From positions 33,790,001-33,854,000 of the forward strand of contig CM126213.1 in the NCBI GenBank assembly GCA_052327205.1: 64,000 bases of DNA. The letters are read 5' to 3'. The stretch's first letter is position 1. Every line of letters starts with the position of its first letter. Origin of the DNA: Somniosus microcephalus (Eukaryota). Below, in pieces: positions 3,487-52,269 of the stretch. The position numbers were made by a program, and so were the translations under genes. The notes under the pieces were generated by a model, which was not told the DNA's origin, did no database searches, and was given only the letters and a program-made list of their open reading frames with translations.

Positions 3487-4237
3487 AACATAAGAAATAG
3501 GAGCAGGAGTAGGCCATTCATCCCCCTCGAGCCTGCTCTCCCATTCAATAAGATCATGGCTGATCTGATCTTGGCCTCAACTCCACTTGTCTGCCTGTTC
3601 CCCATAACGCTCGAAACCCCTGTAGTTCAAAAATCTGTCGATCTCAGCCTTGAATATATTCAATGACTCCGCCTCCACAGCTCTCTGGGGTAGAGAATTC
3701 CAAAGATTCACGACCCTCTGAGAGAAGAAATCCCTCCTCGTCTCCGTCTTAAATGGGCGACCCCTTATTCTGAAACTATGCCCCCTACTTCTAGATTCCC
3801 CCACGAGGGGAAACATCCTCTCAGCATCTATCCTGTCAATCCCCCTCAGAATCTTATATGTTTCAATAAGATCCCCTCTCATTCTTCTAAACTCCAATGA
3901 GTATAGGCCCAACCTGCTCAACCTTTCTTCATAAGACAACCCCTTCATCTCCGGAATCAACCTCGTGAACCTTCTCTGAACTGCCTCCAATGCAAGTATA
4001 TCCCTCCTTAAATAAGGAGACCATAACTGTACGCAGTACTCCAGGTGTGGTCTCACCAACGCCCTGTACAGTTGTAGAAAGACTTCCCTATTTTTATATT
4101 CCATCCCCCTTGCAATAAAGTCCAACATTCCATTTGCCTTCCTAATTACTTGCTGTACCTGCATGCTAACTTTTTGTGTTTTATGCACGAGGACACCCAG
4201 ATCCCTCTGTACCGCAGCATTCTGTAGTCTCTCTCTA
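3487..4237 (-). mobile_element. CR1 LINE 3' fragment, ORF2 C-terminus in frame
   Basis: ORF 3577..4293: QRDLGVLV…LYRALVRPHLEYCVQLWSP…RRMRGDLIETYKI…FFSQRVVNLWNSLP, plus the CR1 3' UTR. Confidence 0.95.
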
Positions 4238-4872
4238 TTGCATTCGTGCCGTGTTAGCGCCGCTGGGTCTCGTGATGCTGGTGGCAACCTCAACGTTACC
4301 TTGCTGGATTGACCGAGGCAGGCTGCTGGGAAGACTCTTTATTTTCCTTTCTTTCTCTTGCTGGCCATGCGGCACCCACGTGTCAGAAGGCAGCGGCACT
4401 AACACGGCACGAGATCAACGCGAGCGAAGCTTCGGAGTCTCGGTGGAAGCACGCGCATTGATCCAATGGCCACCGCAAAGCTTTTTTGTTCCCCTTTCCT
4501 TCCTTTCCTCCCAGGTATCTGACCGACAACTCAGTAGGGACAGCCTGCGGGCTTTCTGCCATCTTAGAATAGAGTAGTGTTTGGCGATTTCTGCACAGGG
4601 CCTGATTACCCCGGGTCACGCCCAAAGGAGGCCGCACAGGTTCAGAAGTGTCCGCGAAGGAAAACAAAAGAAGCAAAATTAGCAGTTGACCTGATTCCCC
4701 ACCACCCCCCCCCCGCCCCCACTTTGAAGGTATCCACTCTCCTTTTATTTCCCCTTGCTTACCCCATTCCCCTGCCAACCCAGGGCTCGCAACTACCTGC
4801 AGGAGGCTGGGGACGGGGGGCTGGGCAAAGAATGCTCCCATCCGTTTTCTTTTTCCTTACTCCCCTCTCCGC

Positions 4873-22128: not shown

Positions 22129-22552
22129 GAATTTCAGGCTTTTTGTTTTGTTTTCAAACATCCTAATGATAGAAGCGCGTCCTCTGAATAAATGAACGTG
22201 CTGCACTAAAAGTACCTGAATTGCACCATCTTGGTGAGTTCAGGTAAAAGGAGTTTGTTTGTCCACCAGTGGAGATGTAGGTTTGCCGACCCTTTAAAAC
22301 CCTTTCCTCTGGCATTTTCATTCCGTCGTATGATTTTTGAAAAAAAAATTTTTGTCGTAACACATTTAAAACTAAAAACAAAATGAAAGAATGGAATTGA
22401 GATTGTGAGACTGTGACATCAAAATAAAATTCCAAAAATAAAACATGATTGCATTATTAAAAAAGACCAACATTTTACAAATACATAGTAAGAACTACAG
22501 CAGAGTAACAGCACAGATAAGTGCAGTAGGAATAGCAACACTGAATAATAAA

Positions 22553-22725
22553 GCATCAAAGAGAGGAGAAATAGAGTCAACGTTTCGGGTCGAACCCTTC
22601 GTCAGAACTGACGACCTGAAACTTTTGACTGTTTCTCCTCTCTTCGATGCTGCCTGACCTGCTGAGTGTTTCCAAGCACTTTCTGTTGTTATTTCAGATT
22701 TCCAGCATCCGTATTTTGCGATTGT
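22553..22725. mobile_element. Penelope-like element (PLE) pLTR-derived fold-back insertion with 13-bp TSD
   Basis: Inverted arms gcatcaaagagaggagaaa…gtcaa / ttgactgtttctcctctcttcgatgc; TSD actgaataataaa at 22540-22552 and 22726-22738; body gatgctgcctgacctgctgagtgtttcc. Confidence 0.8.
22571..22610 (-). ncRNA. Minimal type I hammerhead ribozyme motif (PLE-associated)
   Basis: Minus strand reads CAGUU-CUGACGA-A-GGGU-UCG-ACCC-GAAAC-GUU^GACU: both core boxes, stem II, helix I AGUU/GACU and a loopless palindromic ACGU helix III. Activity is untested. Confidence 0.7.
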
Positions 22726-23281
22726 ACTGAATAATAAACATGGATCTCAACGAGGGAAGGAGAGCGAGAGGGAGGCCCCATCAGTGCTGCTCCATCACTA
22801 GACCTCAAGATGGCCAGAAAGGGTCCAGTTAAAATAGGCCATAAGAAGAAAGAAAAAAATGCCGATTCTCAAAGTTTACTTGTCATAAAGGGAAGATATT
22901 TATGTGGCAGAATGGTGGTGGTTTTGGCAAAAGTTTAGGGTATCATGGAAGTAAAAAATTCTTTCAACTCTCCAAACTAAACAGGCTGTGTTATTTTAAA
23001 TGAGTGAAACTTTGGCCAGTGTTCTTCCTTTGTAAGCGGATAGTTAATTGGTATGGTTATGTGCTGTAATACTAGTACTAGTGCGAGAGAAAGAGGCAAA
23101 TGAGCGCTCACTGTCCCTGGTCACTGCTATGCAGAATGACTCATAAAATGTTTGCTACATAAGGAAGCTGTTTGGCCTGTTGTACCAGTGTTCCGGTGCA
23201 AACTCCCTTGTTGGGGCTGCCTACCCTAATCGCACTTTCCTGCCCTTTCAACATTTTTCCCTTGAGTTTTATTTAATTTTG

Positions 23282-31246: not shown

Positions 31247-32265
31247 GAGGCTTTCGATAAGGTCCCGCATAAGAGATTAGCGTGTAAAGTTAACGCACAT
31301 GGGATTGGGGGCAAGGTACTGACTTGGATAGAGAACTGTTGGCAGACAGAAAGCAAAGAGTTGGAATAAACGGCTCTTTTTCCAAGTGGTGGGCAATGAC
31401 TAGTGGGGTACCGCAGGGATCGGTGCTAGGACCCCAGCTATTCACAAAATATATTAATGATATGGACGAGGGAACTAGATGTAATATCTCCAAGTTTGCA
31501 GATGACACAAAGCTGGGTGGGCGTGTGTGCTGTGAGGAGGATGCCGAGAAACTCCAGTATGATTTGGACAGGTTGGGTGATTGGGCAGATGCATGGCCGA
31601 TGCAGTATAATGTGGATAAATGAGAGGTTATCCACTTTGGTGGCAAAAACAGGAAGGCAGATTATTATCTGAATGGTAATAGGGCCTTGGTGAGACCACA
31701 TCTTGAGTATTGATGTGCAGTTTTGGTCGCCTTATCTGAGGAAGGATGTTCTTCTTGCCATGGAGGGAGTGCAGCGAAGATTCACCAGACTGATACCTGG
31801 GATGGCAGGAATGACATATGAGGAGAGATTGGGTCGATTGGGCTTTTACTCGCTGGAGTTTAGAAGAATGAGAGGGGATCTCATTGAAACTTATAAAATT
31901 CTAACAGGACTAGACAGACTAGATGCAGGAAGGCTGTTCCCGATGGCGGGGGAGTCCAGAACCAGTGGTCACAGTCTAAGGATAAGGTGTAAGCCATTTA
32001 GGACAGAGATGAGGAGGAATTTCTTCACCCAAAGAGTGGTGGACCTGTGGAATTTTCTATCACAGAAGGCAGTTGAGGCCAATTCATTAAATATATTCAA
32101 GAAGGAGTTAGATAGATTTCTTAAGGCTAAAGGGATCAAGGGATATGGGGAGAAAGCAGGGACAGGGTACTGAATTTGGATGATCAGCCATGATCTCATT
32201 GAATGGCGGAGCAGGCTCGAGGGGCCGAATGGCCTACTCCTGCTCCTATCTTCTATGTTTCTATG
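31247..32265 (+). mobile_element. CR1 LINE fragment including RT motifs (pseudogenised)
   Basis: AFDKVPH…SGVPQGSVLGP…SKFADDTKLGG; premature stop, frameshift and internal deletion; (tttctatg)-type tail. Confidence 0.97.
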
Positions 32266-32638: not shown

Positions 32639-33464
32639 CAATGGAAGAAATGAACTCCAGTGGCAAACTGAGAACGGAAAAGCTCAGTAATGCGAGAGAG
32701 AGAAAAAAAACCTGGAGACTGCATATTCCACAGAATTTCTAAAAAGGCGTGAGAGTGTACTGAAGGGTGTAGCAGTCTCTGGGTTCACATGACATCAATT
32801 CACTGCTTCAGCATTGCTCTGTGGTTAATGAGGTCATCTGAAGCTGCCGATGTCTTGCAGCCCGGTAAACATGCCTGCAACCATTTTGTTACTCTCTGCC
32901 AAATGCCCTGGCTGCATAAGAACCTCGTCGTCCGCCGGTGACGCAGACTGCGGCTGGGGTACAAGGTGGGGTTCTCGGGCCGGCCCGTAGAATACTGGGT
33001 GAAATAGTGAAGCGTCCGAGCCCCACTTGCGTTCAAACGCAAAGCTGACGGTGGCAGCGCCGTGTGCCCGTTGAGTTTGAGGCGGCACTGGGGTCCCGGT
33101 GGCGTGATGGGGGTTAGATGCAGACAGAGAGTAGCAATATTCGACCGTCGGGGTTTAAAAATAACCGGAATGTAAAGGGGTTGCGATTTGGGTGTCATGG
33201 AATCATACAGCGCAGTGGGAGGCCATTCGGTCCATCGTGCCAAGTGGAGGATTTGTGGCCATTGAATCTGTGCTGTGCCATCCATCGCTCTGGGTCAGTC
33301 ACTTTTCGAGTGCGCAGTGTGTACCTTCATTATGTTAAAGCTGTCTCACACACTCATTGTCATGCAGCAACATCAGGTCTTTTTTTTACATTTCCTCTCC
33401 GGCTCGGGGCCATTTTATCTTCAGTAGAGTTTTTTTTTAAACTGCAAGGAAATCTGAATTCAGG

Positions 33465-33630
33465 ACAGCAAATGCTGGAAATACACAGCAGAAAAGAGAA
33501 AAGACAGCTTAATGTTTCCGGGAGTTCTGATGAAGGATCTACACCAGAGACGGTAACCTGTCTCTTCTCTTCATAGATGTTAATTGAATTGCTGTGTATT
33601 CCGAGCACTTTCTGTTATTTCACTTTCTCT
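33465..33630. mobile_element. Degenerate PLE-derived fold-back with decayed hammerhead
   Basis: aatgctggaaatacacagca…tgctgtgtattccgagcact inverted arms; gttCTGATGAaggatctacaccaGAGAcgg in the middle. Confidence 0.65.
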
Positions 33631-39661: not shown

Positions 39662-40885
39662 GGGGGTGAAGTCAGTCCGACAGGTGAGGGGGGGGTGGGA
39701 AGTCCGACAGGTGGGGGGGGGGGAGTCAGTCCGACAGGTGAGGGGGGAGAAGTCAGTCCGACAGGTAAGGGGGGGGGAGTCGGTCCGACAGGTGAGGGGG
39801 GAGAAGTCAGTCCGACAGGTAATGGGGGGGGAGTCAGTCCGACAGGTGAGGGGGGAGAAGTCAGTCCGACAGGTGGTGGGGGGGGAGTCAGTCCGACAGG
39901 TGAGGGGTGCGGGGAGTCAGTCCAACAGGTGAGGGGGGGGGGAGTCGGTCCGACAGGTGAGGGGGGGAAGTCAGTCCGACAGGTGAGGGGGGGGATGTCA
40001 GTCCGACAGGTGGGGGGGTGAGTCAGTCCAACAGGTGAGGTGGGGGGAGTCAGTCCGACAGGTGAGGGGGGGAGATGTCAGTCCAAAGGGTCCAACAGGT
40101 AAGGGGGGGGTGGGAAGTCCGACAGGTAAGGGGGGGTGGGACATCCGACAGGTGAGGGGGGGGAGTCATTCCGACAGGTGAGGGGGGGAGTCACTCTGAC
40201 AGGTGAGGGGGGGAGTCAATCCGACAGGTGAAGGGGGGGGAGTCAGTCCGACAGGTGAGGGGGGGAGTCAGTCCGACAGGTGAGGGGGGGAGTCAGTCCG
40301 ACAGGTGAGGGGGGGGAGTCAGTCCGACAGGTGAAGGGGGGGGAGTCAGTCCAACAGGTGAGGGGGGGAGTCAGTCTGACAGGTGAGGGGGGGGAGTCAG
40401 TCCGACAGGTGAAGGGGGGGGAGTCAGTCCAACAGGTGAGGGGGGGAGTCAGTCTGACAGGTGAGGGGGGGGAGTCAGTCCGACAGGTGAGGGAGGGAGT
40501 CAGTCCAACAGGTGAGGGGGGGAGTCAGTCCGACAGGTGAGGGGGGGAGTCACTCCGACAGGTGAGGGGGGGAGTCAGTCCGACAGGTGAGGGGTGGGGG
40601 GAATCAGTCCGACAGGTGAGGGGGGGGAGTCACTCCGACAGGTGAGGGGGGGAGTCAGTCCGACAGGTGAGGGGGGGAGTCAGTCCGACAGGTGAGGGGG
40701 GGAGTCAGTCCGACAGGTGAGGGGGGGAGTCAGTCCGACAGGTGAGGGGTGGGGGGAGTCAGTCCGACAGGTGAGGGGTGGGGGGAGTCAGTCCGACAGG
40801 TGAGCGGGGGGGGGGAGTCAGTCCGACAATGAGGGGGGGAGTCAGTCCGACAGGTGAGGGGGGGAAGTAGTCCGACAGGTGAGGG
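39662..40885. repeat. G-rich minisatellite, about 46 units of about 25-29 bp
   Basis: Unit consensus AGTCAGTCCGACAGGTGA followed by a G-run of about 6-10; counted by eye. Confidence 0.97.
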
Positions 40886-41360: not shown

Positions 41361-42609
41361 GAAAGCCACTACAACAATGCCTTTGAAGAGTGGCTGACAA
41401 TCGGATACCATGGCAACTGGCGTCCAGGCTGGGCAGTCCACTTACTCTCCACTCAAACCGCAATTTTTTTCTTTAATTCCACAGCGCATACTTAATGTTT
41501 GGCTGAGACAGTGAGCCACATTTTTTTTTATATTTAAAGGAAACAAAACAAAAAACGTTCTTAACAGAAAGAGAAAAAAAATACCACTACAAGGGAGGGG
41601 AAAAAAAGTTTGTCCAACTGAATGGTTTTCAGATGTGGGCTGGTCTTCTTCTCGTTACCACCACAGCAGCGTTTGTTTACTGATGGCCTACTCGGGGCGA
41701 TGGAGATCACTGCCGCCCCCTTATAGTAAACCACAAGCTGGGACCCACAGCCAAATCCTCTGGTTTTCCAGGTGGGATATCTTGGCCCGTCATTTAAGCT
41801 GCCGAGTGCTGTCGCCGATTACAGTCGGCAAAAGTCCAGGAACGATGAGCCAAATACCGAGAGCCGTTTGTGCTCCACCTACCCGGAGAAGAGAAAATCG
41901 CTGACTCCCTTCTCCTTTGGATGTGTTGCAGATTGGCTGAACCCTCTAAGCCTCCACACCACATTTTACACAAACACACACACACACACGAGGATTTAGC
42001 CAAATTCTAATTTTCCAGGTTAACAGCCTCAGACATGATTCCTGGATTAGCTGAGCAAGCAGTTTGGCTAAAAATGCAAAGCAAAAAGAAATAAATGTTA
42101 GCCAAAGAGAAGAGATGACGACATCACACTTGGCTCCCAGTTAGCTGATGGCAGTTTGAGAAAGCTATGTGTGTGCGTATTGGCCATATTCCCTGTTTTT
42201 TTTCCCCAAAGTGCAGACAGTAAAAGGCGACCAAGGGAGTCACCACAACTTTACCACAAGAAAAATGTCAAGTTTTGCCCAAGGAAAATGAACAAAAAAA
42301 GGGAGTGATTCCGTCTCTGTGAGGAGATAAAGGCAGCTGTGTTCAAGCAACCATTCCATTACTAAGACAGCAATTACTCGGGTGCCTGAATTGTCTTGTC
42401 TGCTACTCAGAGTCACCTCAGAGCAGGGAGCAGTGGACTAACGGAGTTGCATTGATGGCAAAACAAAAAGAAAATGGTCAAGAATTCCAGAAACAAGATG
42501 GTTGATGGCCTTTAAGGGTTGCAAGCAGAATTCCATGCTGCACTTCTTTAAGGTGGCTTGTCAAGGGGAATGATGTCAGCTCTGAGGAATGGGGCAGTCT
42601 TCTACTTAC

Positions 42610-43323
42610 CTTGGTGTCATATTTGACCCTGAAATGAGCTTCCGGCCACATATCCGCAGCATAACTAAGACCGCCTATTTCCACCTCCGTAACATCGCCC
42701 GTCTCCGCCCTTGCCTCAGCTCATCCGCTGCTGAAACCCTCACCCATGCCTTTGTTACCTCTAGACTTGACTATTCCAACGCACTCCTGGCTGGCCTCCC
42801 ACGTTCTACCCTCTGTAAACTTGAGGTGATCCAAAACTTGGCTGCCCGTGTCCTAACTCGCACCAAGTCCCATTCGCCCATCACCCCTGTGCTCGCTGAC
42901 CTACATTGGCTCCCGGTTAAGCAGCGCCTCGATTTCAAAATTCTCATCCTTGTTTTCAAATCCCTCCATGGCCTCGCCCCTCCCTATCTCTGTAATCTCC
43001 TTCAGCCCCACAACCCCCCACCGAGATATCTGCGCTCCTCTAATTCTGCCCTCTTGAGCATCCCTGATTATAATCGCTCAACCTTTGGTGGCCTGCTGCC
43101 TAGGCCCTAAGCTCTGGAATTCCCTGCCTAAACCTCTCCGGCTTGCTACCTCTCTTTCCTCCTTTAAGACGCCCCTTAAAACCTACCTCTTTGACCAAAC
43201 CTGCCCTAATCTCTCCTTATGTGGCTCGGTGTCAAAGTTTTTGTCTTAAAACACTCCTGCGCAGTGTCTTGGGGCGTTTTACTACGTTGAAGGCGCTATA
43301 TAAATACAAGTTGTTGTTGTTGC
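42610..43323 (+). mobile_element. L2 LINE 3' fragment with ORF2 C-terminus
   Basis: ORF 42589..43110 LGVIFD…HAFVTSRLDYSNALL…HITPVLADLHWLPV-type motif…FKILILVFK; (TTG)n tail. Confidence 0.95.
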
Positions 43324-46476: not shown

Positions 46477-47413
46477 AGAAACATAGAAACATAGAAGATA
46501 GGAGCAGGAGTAGGCCATTCGGCCTCTCGAGCCTGCTCCGCCATTCAATGCGATCATGGCTGATCATCCAAATTCAGTACCCGGTCCCTGCTTTCTCCCC
46601 ATACCCCTTGATCCCTTTAGCCTTAAGAAATATATCCAACTCCTTCTTGAATATATTTAATGTATTGGTCTCTACTGCCTTCTGTGGTAGAGAATTCCAC
46701 AGGTTCACCACTCTCTGGGTGAAGAAATTCCTCCTCATTTCTGTCCTAAATGGCCTACCCCTTATCCTTAGACTGTGACCCCTGGTTCTGGACTCCCCGA
46801 CCATCGGGAACATCCTCCCTGCATCTAGTCTGTCCAGTCCTGTCAGAATTTTATAAGTTTCAATGAGATCCCCTCTCATTCTTCTAAACTCCAGCGAGTA
46901 CAAGCCCAATTGTCCCAATCTCTCCTCATACGTCATTCCTGCCATCCCAGGTATCAGCGTGGTGAATCTTCGCTGCACTCCCTCCATGGCAAGAACATCC
47001 TTCCTCAGATAAGGCGACCAAAACTGCACACAATACTCAAGATGTGGTCTCACCAAGGCCCTGTACAACTGCAGCAAGACATCCTTGTTCCTGTACTCAA
47101 ACCCTCTCGCTACGAAGGCCAACATACCATTTGCCTTCTTAACCGCCTGCTGCACCTGCATGCTTACCTTCAGCGACTGGTGCACAAGGACACCCAGGTC
47201 TCGTTGCAATTCCCCTTCTCCCAATCTATTGCCATTTCGATAATAATCTGCCTTCCTGTTTTTGCCACCAAAGTGGGTAACCTCACATTTATCCACTTTA
47301 TATTGCATCTGCCATACTTCTGCCCAATCACCCAACCTGTCCAAATCATCCTGTAGTTTCTCAGCATCCTCCTCACAGCACACACGCCCACCCAGCTTTG
47401 TGTCGTCTGCAAA
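46477..47413 (-). mobile_element. CR1 LINE, 5'-truncated at the FADD motif, remaining ORF2 uninterrupted
   Basis: ORF 46574..47383 (269 aa) extends upstream to FADDTKLGG; (ctatgttt)-type tail; possible agttt TSD. Confidence 0.97.
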
Positions 47414-47502
47414 GTTTTCGTTTGTGTCTACCTAATCCAGAAAATCTCCAATGAACAACACCTTTGCTATAAGCCACCTTACTTGCCAAAGAATTCAAGG
47501 TA

Positions 47503-51220: not shown

Positions 51221-52086
51221 TTCTTTTATCCTTTTGATACACTCTTACACAACAAAAATCTATCGATCTCTGTCTTGCAGATCAAGAGTTAGCAAAATAA
51301 ATGAAATGTTTGAAAATTGGTTACTATTAGTTATTGTGATCCATTCGTTGCCTTGGAGAACTTACTGTAGAATTTTTTACAAAAAACGTTTTATAGTTGG
51401 GCCTCCAGGGCTCACTCCACGAAGTACGCTTCTGATTGCAGTTGGGTTGTGGAGGGGCACTGTGCGTACAGTGGAGAGTAGAGTGCTTCCCACAAGTAGG
51501 GAAGAGAATTAGAGCGTCTTACCCGCACACCTTGCAGCACCTGGTTACAGTGCTGTTGGCAGGAGTCTGGGAGCAAGTGATCTGCCTCCATCTTAGCTAA
51601 GCCAGGTGAGGCTGGAGGGAGCGATCAAAAAGATAAGGAAGATTAGATAAGGGATTGTAAAGTTGGCCTTTTTGGGGGATGCTTTCACCGCTCTGTTCCG
51701 TGTGCGCCCAGTGGAAACTTGCCGAATTTTCCAACACTGGCTGCTGAGAAGACCCATTTAAAAAATGGGGTACAGTATTCACAGCGGCCGTACTTTGCAA
51801 ATCCGGCGGGTTTACACTGGGGCTTCTGCCAGGTGTGCGAGGCCTGCACATTGGAAACTGCCGACACACATCCCCCTCTAAGGCCAATAAAGACGCAGCT
51901 GAAGAAGGACTGGCATTTCCTTCAGTCATCACACCCCTGAGACACTGTCCTTAAACCCCTCCGTCCAGCCACCTCTCTACTCACCTTTTTAAAAACCCAC
52001 CTCAAAAAGCTATCTGCTCAATTAGGTCTTCAGTCACCTCTCCTGAACCCCCCTGCACACTTGGTAGTCAATACCTCTTAATAATG

Positions 52087-52200
52087 TAATAGCAAAATAC
52101 TGCGGATGCTGGAAATCTGAAATAACAACAGAAAATGCTGGAAATACTCTCTCCGCGGATGCTGCCTGGCCTGCTGAGTATTTCCAGCATTTTCTGTTGT
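52087..52200. mobile_element. PLE-derived 114-bp hairpin insertion with 15-bp TSD
   Basis: Perfect inverted arms acaacagaaaatgctggaaatactc / gagtatttccagcattttctgttgt; TSD tacctcttaataatg at 52072-52086 and 52201-52215. Confidence 0.85.
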
Positions 52201-52269
52201 TACCTCTTAATAATGCACTGCCGACTTTTTCTGCGACACTCGAGGTATTTATTGTTTTCGAACAGCTTA

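Follow-up and report, generated by a model that had tools for sequence, protein, structure and literature searches.

A minimal hammerhead motif in an old fold-back insertion, very probably a truncated Penelope-like element, in Somniosus microcephalus

Does a complete hammerhead motif within a small fold-back insertion mark a working ribozyme, or even a mobile unit of its own? The question is raised by a 173-bp insertion in a 64-kb stretch of the genome of Somniosus microcephalus (contig CM126213.1), hereafter the window, where an initial annotation had seen an intact hammerhead ribozyme and proposed that it sits either in a tiny retrozyme-like mobile unit or in a highly truncated Penelope-like element (PLE) insertion. 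The anatomy of the insert, two sister copies in the window and data on the family from relatives support the second proposal. Very probably, the insert is an old, fixed, 5'-truncated stump of an endonuclease (EN)-bearing PLE, made of two pieces of its pseudo-LTR (pLTR) lying head to head. The hammerhead was probably inherited as a passenger, and the fold predicted for this site keeps it shut.

The minus strand of 22610..22575 reads as had been claimed, with both catalytic boxes, stem II, helix I, GUU and an ACGU palindrome. It holds a minimal type I hammerhead motif at 22575..22609. Helix I (22609-22606 with 22578-22575, AGUU/GACU) counts 4 bp and has a G-U pair beside the cut. It leads into the core CUGACGA (22605-22599; C3 at 22605, G8 at 22600, A9 at 22599), an extra A after A9 (22598) and helix II (22597-22594 with 22590-22587, GGGU/ACCC around a UCG loop; G10.1 at 22597, C11.1 at 22587). 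Then come GAAA (22586-22583; G12 at 22586, A15.1 at 22583), a palindromic C15.2-G16.2 (22582-22581) with no loop III, and the cleavage triplet GUU (22581-22579; U16.1 at 22580, U17 at 22579). The predicted cut is at 22579^22578.

We wrote our own implementation of the minimal hammerhead (min-HHR) descriptor of PMC4209133 (Fig S7; stems I and II of 3-7 bp, CUGANGA, GAAANNUH). Its single match on both strands of the 64-kb window is this motif, and 500 dinucleotide shuffles yielded 2 matches. The three sequence hallmarks of min-HHRs given in the same paper are all present, A22598 being the extra base, G22597-C22587 the G10.1-C11.1 pair and C22582-G22581 the palindromic 15.2-16.2. Models of RNA families, by which the initial annotation had suggested checking the motif, did not recover it. 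Rfam gave 0 matches of any family in the 64 kb at gathering score and, at E<=10, seven weak matches in 22400-22900, none of which is a hammerhead and four of which are miRNA models reflecting only the hairpin. By itself the 42-nt hammerhead motif folds no better than shuffles (z -0.04), as expected because the motif lacks helix III. The word intact describes the motif and does not extend to activity.

The motif resembles the min-HHRs of metazoan PLE pLTRs (PMC4209133). It fits their descriptor, has CUGANGA with an extra base and G10.1-C11.1, and passes from GAAAC to GUU without a loop III, as many rows of Fig S3 do. It differs from them in that the sequence of its family is not among the Fig S3 rows, whose vertebrates are three teleost groups, lamprey, coelacanth, frog, turtle and snake, and in that its helix II, of 4 bp, lies at the short end. 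Among openly accessible papers, we found none that deals specifically with stumps of this type in cartilaginous fish.

How was the insert put together? It is enclosed by a 13-bp direct repeat, ACTGAATAATAAA, which is exact at 22540..22552 and 22726..22738 (plus strand) and occurs at these two places only within the window. The repeat and the 173-bp unit between its copies are thus as first described. The repeat is AT-rich, and the final A of its left copy also fits the element (1-nt overlap). No empty insertion site was seen in the reads of relatives, and it is from the repeat alone that we infer a target-site duplication (TSD). The window holds 463 direct repeats of 13-mers against 0.35 in shuffles, probably an excess due to tandem arrays, and this count was not used as a control for the TSD.

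Between the repeats, an inverted, pLTR-like short arm (22553..22611, minus strand) covers the hammerhead core together with the 6 nt preceding it and ends ~26 nt beyond the cut site. It abuts a sense arm (22612..22725, plus strand) that extends from the hammerhead loop II to the family 3' end, and whose cleavage triplet is mutated. Alternatively, a later loss of 9 nt between two CGA repeats would put the start of the sense arm at C3 (22608). Relative to other copies, this arm has a 1-nt insertion near 22674 and a deletion of ~3 nt near 22710. The head-to-head junction is itself a palindrome (22599..22614) with 7-bp arms and a 2-nt loop. The last ~34 nt of the sense arm (22692..22725, plus strand) form a 'tail', which in sister copies is found on one arm only. 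About 40 nt of sequence are common to both arms, which show 83% agreement across 41 aligned columns (4 mismatches, 2 indels). The fold-back that had been noticed is clear, 22552-22574 and 22629-22651 being 91% complementary. The fold z is -5.4 for the element and -8.9/-10.0 for 22553-22651.

The initial annotation had also pointed to a collapsed copy of the hammerhead, CTGACGA-cct-GAAAC, at 22608-22622. It is found where it was placed, but it lies on the opposite strand, and for this reason it cannot be a dimer partner. Its GAAAC is followed by TTTTGAC, so the GUH is lost, and its start is the right half of the 7+2+7 junction palindrome. From the sequence, it can be read as a chimera of the junction or as a full second core minus 9 nt between the two CGA repeats. 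Other copies of the family match to 22611 and then diverge (83 RNA reads). The ortholog in organism D, a relative discussed below, is apparently ~13 nt longer within the element, judging from distance offsets, and this weakly favours the later 9-nt deletion. Apart from this hint, a pure chimera of the junction and a later loss of 9 nt would look alike.

Two sister copies in the window have the same architecture. One (52072..52215) shows head-to-head arms that differ by the ~34-nt tail, a 15-bp TSD (52072-52086/52201-52215) and no hammerhead part. The other (33448..33619) is older, also with head-to-head arms, and is ~70% alike to the sense arm of the 173-bp insert. It has no clear TSD and carries on its sense arm a decayed hammerhead, in which GAAAC reads GAGAC and GUU reads GGU. 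An inverted, 5'-truncated pLTR is thus joined head to head in all three window copies, with lengths and junctions that all differ, and core damage is seen in two of the window's three hammerhead-bearing arms. In each sister, one arm stops at the equivalent of 22690-22691, and the long arm of the copy at 52 kb reaches the equivalent of 22723; these arm ends define the tail of ~34 nt.

We looked for the family in 4 of the 24 listed sequencing runs (X4, X9, X14 and the RNA run X21), at read identity from 80%. In relatives, at least five same-strand joints have yet other head-to-head junctions (22593>22645, 22593>22689, 22608>22681, 22609>22689 and 22599>22674). The 12 joints listed as 'opposite strand' were left out of the count of fold-back junctions, because a plain colinear copy yields them by switching between homologous arms. 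In X4, summed contig depth reaches 1.9 million over 22676-22696 and 73,000 on the hammerhead, with 7.6 on the flanks; the corresponding values in X9 are 1.6 million, 46,000 and 3.25. The ratios to the single-copy flank in these two runs, which are rough orders and not copy numbers, are ~2.5-5x10^5 for the tail and 1-1.4x10^4 for the hammerhead. Roughly, then, the depth ratios show a very abundant family with a steep gradient of 5' truncation. Its 3' end is fairly uniform on the tail side, with AT-rich variable sequence beyond. Scans by DNA pattern gave no match in viral contigs (0 and 0) or in genome contigs (0). Six metagenome-contig loci from the pattern scan were rejected, all being chance matches of 21-22 nt in DNA of 60-67% GC.

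Could such a fold-back be a non-autonomous unit akin to retrozymes or SINEs, which is transcribed, processed by its hammerhead and re-inserted whole by PLE proteins? It is bounded by a TSD, it is non-coding and its hammerhead motif is complete. It shares with the animal non-LTR retrozymes, as described in PMC7229834 and 10.64898/2026.07.22.740005, small size, lack of coding sequence, a type I hammerhead, GC under 50%, a TSD of >4 bp and a likely descent from PLEs. Animal retrozymes have indeed been argued to derive from pLTRs (bioRxiv 10.64898/2026.07.22.740005), pLTR sequences alone suffice for integration in trans according to PMC3846280, and the copies end rather uniformly at the 3' end on the tail side. 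Yet, animal retrozymes consist of units with canonical type I hammerheads, repeated in tandem from head to tail (PMC7229834), whereas here a single non-canonical motif lies in a head-to-head arrangement, and no tandem head-to-tail repeat was found at the insertion locus. The canonical retrozyme hammerhead has a 6-bp helix I, a capped helix III and a contact between loops 1 and 2; this one has a 4-bp helix I and no loop III. Furthermore, the junctions are heterogeneous. The three window copies and the at least five joints in relatives are all different, and lengths differ between copies as well; the initial annotation had proposed to check whether lengths and ends are homogeneous. Depth at the insert's own junction bin is at most ~3% of that of the hammerhead bin in all four runs, and neither arm of the insert ends at the hammerhead cut site. 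We regard this possibility as quite unlikely and as already largely refuted, and the retrozyme-like mobile unit of the initial annotation is not supported. That annotation had also described what ordinary dead PLE debris should look like, namely copies with decaying cores and random ends. This picture is found in part: cores decay and ends vary among the copies, but the core of this copy is intact.

A truncated PLE insertion accounts for the same features differently. On sequence grounds, the insert is likely to belong with the truncated EN+ PLE insertions that carry a min-HHR. It has a head-to-head inverted pLTR, a tail of ~34 nt on one arm, a TSD at an AT-rich site and a hammerhead within the pLTR. 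The EN+ PLE insertions published in PMC3846280 and PMC8557442 similarly show a head-to-head inverted truncated copy, a one-sided tail, a junction palindrome, a TSD and an AT-rich target. The inverted copy is 5'-truncated and the tail spans 30-40 bp in PMC8557442, and rotifer PLE insertions have a 31-bp tail, 8-10-bp TSDs and junction palindromes in PMC3846280. In addition, PMC4209133 describes PLE min-HHRs as mostly single motifs of truncated elements, sometimes paired on opposite strands, and as numbering thousands per genome. There are differences. The insert has 173 bp and no ORF, the TSDs measure 13-15 bp instead of the 8-10 bp of rotifers (PMC3846280), and the short arm stops ~40 nt before the usual first tail boundary, that is, it starts ~40 nt inside it, unlike both sister copies. 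Among the points against a stump are this early end of the short arm, the long TSD and the intact motif, which leaves some room for selection on this copy.

The initial annotation had raised the matter of an autonomous partner encoding a reverse transcriptase (RT) and a GIY-YIG domain. Neither the 216 window ORFs nor a protein search contained one. Among these ORFs (>=75 aa), Pfam recognised no GIY-YIG or PLE-type RT, and its one match is RVT_1, ~9 kb from the insert. A scan for five short PLE protein motifs gave three matches to one motif, none convincing, and a protein search with the 43-aa tail frame across the copy at 52 kb gave three candidates, none at E<=0.01. Because no parent ORF was found in the window, PLE membership and clade rest on non-coding anatomy. 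Of the frames across the 3' part of the copy, only that from ATG 22647 stays free of stops as far as the indel, and it could be the start of the parent ORF. Three motifs made of a pyrimidine tract and CAG, similar to 3' splice sites, are found at 22606-22611 (minus strand, just before helix I), before ATG 22647 (plus strand) and near 22696 (plus strand). In D. virilis, the Penelope intron ends at helix I (PMC4209133).

With no parent ORF found, and with LINE fragments common in the window, one might think of a stump left by a retroelement that carries a hammerhead but is not an EN+ PLE, or of an inversion produced by twin priming of the LINE type. Twin priming also yields TSD-flanked inversions. 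Yet, there is no poly(A) or microsatellite tail at 22725, and the arms overlap by ~40 nt, which adjacent pieces of one RNA would not do. Moreover, a one-sided 34-nt tail together with a min-HHR are traits of PLEs (PMC8557442, PMC3846280). We consider such an origin very unlikely.

If the insert is a PLE stump, its shape can be derived from a short series of steps. A GIY-YIG/RT protein would nick an AT-rich target twice, once on each strand, with 13 nt between the nicks. From one of them reverse transcription would be primed at the tail end (22725), and from the other at an internal site (22553). The insert overlaps the target by 1 nt on each side. Both cDNAs would run through the cut site and stop in or just before the hammerhead; since both arms pass the cut site, the templates would have been uncleaved RNA. 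The cDNAs would then be joined head to head, possibly via a 4-nt CTGA/TCAG overlap, and gap filling would yield the 13-bp TSD, after which the copy would drift.

We infer two-nick priming for both arms by analogy with Poseidon of Anolis (PAc, PMC11167929). On AT-rich DNA, the Anolis PLE protein cleaves both strands and extends them; it begins synthesis at two internal sites, one on either side of the tail, and its template is mostly uncleaved RNA. The insert likewise has two apparent RT start points flanking the tail, arms that pass through the cut site and no RNA-seq ends there. One difference is that the Anolis activity was seen with purified protein (PMC11167929), whereas the insert is described here from sequence and read data. 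Self-priming on an antisense template has been proposed for the inverted arms of PLEs (PMC3846280) and is a possible alternative to two-nick priming for this insert. Simple fold-back copying of the short-arm cDNA was discarded, because it would leave the final 74 nt of the sense arm without a source.

When did this happen? The insertion is found at the same site in organism C, where one contig matches 22363-22585 with 7 differences in 223 and no gaps, and a second matches 22711-22940 with 11 differences. It is also found at the same site in organism D, in a contig across 22363-22940 with 39 differences and 41 gap letters. Run X14 had no coverage of the insertion site. The insertion is thus common to two related organisms that are 3-7% diverged, and is therefore old.

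Age matters for the interpretation of the intact core. We computed that all 13 core positions survive neutrally in 67-34% of cases at 3-8% drift. Chance alone would thus leave the core intact in between a third and two thirds of copies as old as this one, and its integrity is no sign of selection. Across the family, the hammerhead variants among those listed (>=5%, in reads of at least 80% identity) concern loop II, N7, C11.1>U (a G-U pair remains), and the cleavage site, which is GUU or GUC followed by A or G at 1.1. They mostly keep the fold, and this fits selection on the parent elements. By comparison, G8>A (22600, in a CpG), which fits decay after insertion, is found in 109 of 264 RNA reads and in 2%, 8% and 21% of contig depth in X4, X9 and X14. 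Its share in RNA reads is far above that in the DNA of relatives and may come from one highly expressed dead copy.

Is the motif able to fold and cut? According to nearest-neighbour prediction, the hammerhead-competent fold costs +3.4 kcal/mol relative to the ensemble for the motif by itself and +18.2 kcal/mol in the whole element. Read-through transcription of the locus would produce the antisense arm ahead of the core, and the two would pair. The fold is accordingly predicted to be costly already in a nascent minus-strand transcript ending just past helix I (+10.5 kcal/mol), because the antisense arm, transcribed first, pairs with GAAAC, whose predicted probability of being unpaired is ~0 once this arm is present. 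As part of the parent element, the hammerhead would work in dimeric form via the ACGU helix III, probably with the help of protein. The ACGU/ACGU duplex that makes this helix is predicted at -1.7 kcal/mol. In vitro, a single min-HHR is left uncleaved and dimers or trimers show low cleavage (PMC4209133), while the Anolis PLE motif is cut only with protein, is dispensable for insertion and left no RNA-seq ends (PMC11167929). Predicted sequestration, the weak ACGU duplex and the published behaviour of min-HHRs make ribozyme cleavage at the 173-bp locus unlikely. Cleavage of host RNA after pairing with a second copy, as the initial annotation had proposed, also seems unlikely here.

RNA data come from run X21, which bears the same species label and of which 24% was read. 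It contains 1648 reads on the element, and 92% of these continue into unlike sequence. Depth is zero in 21 of 29 bins, including all bins on unique flanks, in this single library read to 24%. The initial annotation had suggested looking for RNA ends at the cut site; begins or ends of reads do not pile up in this one cDNA library, which was not designed for small or circular RNA. Animal retrozymes are marked by plentiful monomer RNA, both linear and circular, that ends at the cut site. Both arms show a first-mate strand bias of ~2:1 in X21, whose meaning depends on library strandedness.

These results bear on the idea that this copy was retained, or co-opted, as an active ribozyme that dimerises in trans with another family copy and so cleaves a host transcript. 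In its favour, the core is fully intact even though the insertion predates at least two species splits, some 10^4 hammerhead-bearing copies are possible partners, and the family is represented in RNA (1648 reads). Dimers of PLE min-HHRs do cleave weakly in vitro (PMC4209133) and the Anolis one cleaves with the help of protein (PMC11167929). Yet, the unique flanks have no RNA depth and there is no pile-up of ends (one RNA run, 24% read), the core is predicted to be sequestered by the opposite arm, a duplex of only -1.7 kcal/mol would hold the dimer, and chance alone often leaves such a core intact at this age. No host exon was recognised among window ORFs >=75 aa either. We consider co-option very unlikely.

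A bolder model would extend from this copy to the family. The ~10^4 fold-back stumps could form a hammerhead-locked class of their own, in which the antisense arm would keep the ribozyme off until a PLE protein or a second copy opens it, and ACGU-paired transcripts would then cut host RNA in trans. We deem this very unlikely. If pairing in trans did operate, RNA would be cleaved from sites all over the genome by a dead repeat family. Specialists would find this surprising, and none of the present results suggests it.

What makes the old PLE stump useful is its family. A single copy matters little, since the min-HHRs of truncated PLEs have been known since 2014 (PMC4209133) and the pattern of an inverted arm plus a tail since 2013 (PMC3846280). 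The family is a natural library of tiny, two-armed, TSD-flanked stumps in which to study how PLEs build the inverted arm, by both nicks or by self-priming. It is also suited to finding out whether any cDNAs terminate where the hammerhead cuts.

The window around the insert is repeat-rich DNA of vertebrate type, whose repeats resemble those of a cartilaginous fish. Fragments of LINE RT and C-terminal regions lie at 3577-4338, 31294-32173, 42586-43110 and 46574-47431, with one Pfam RVT_1 match at 31294-31620; we take them to be CR1/L2-like. A G-rich minisatellite of 1.2 kb occupies 39662-40885, with a period of 25-27, ~46 copies and a strong GC skew.
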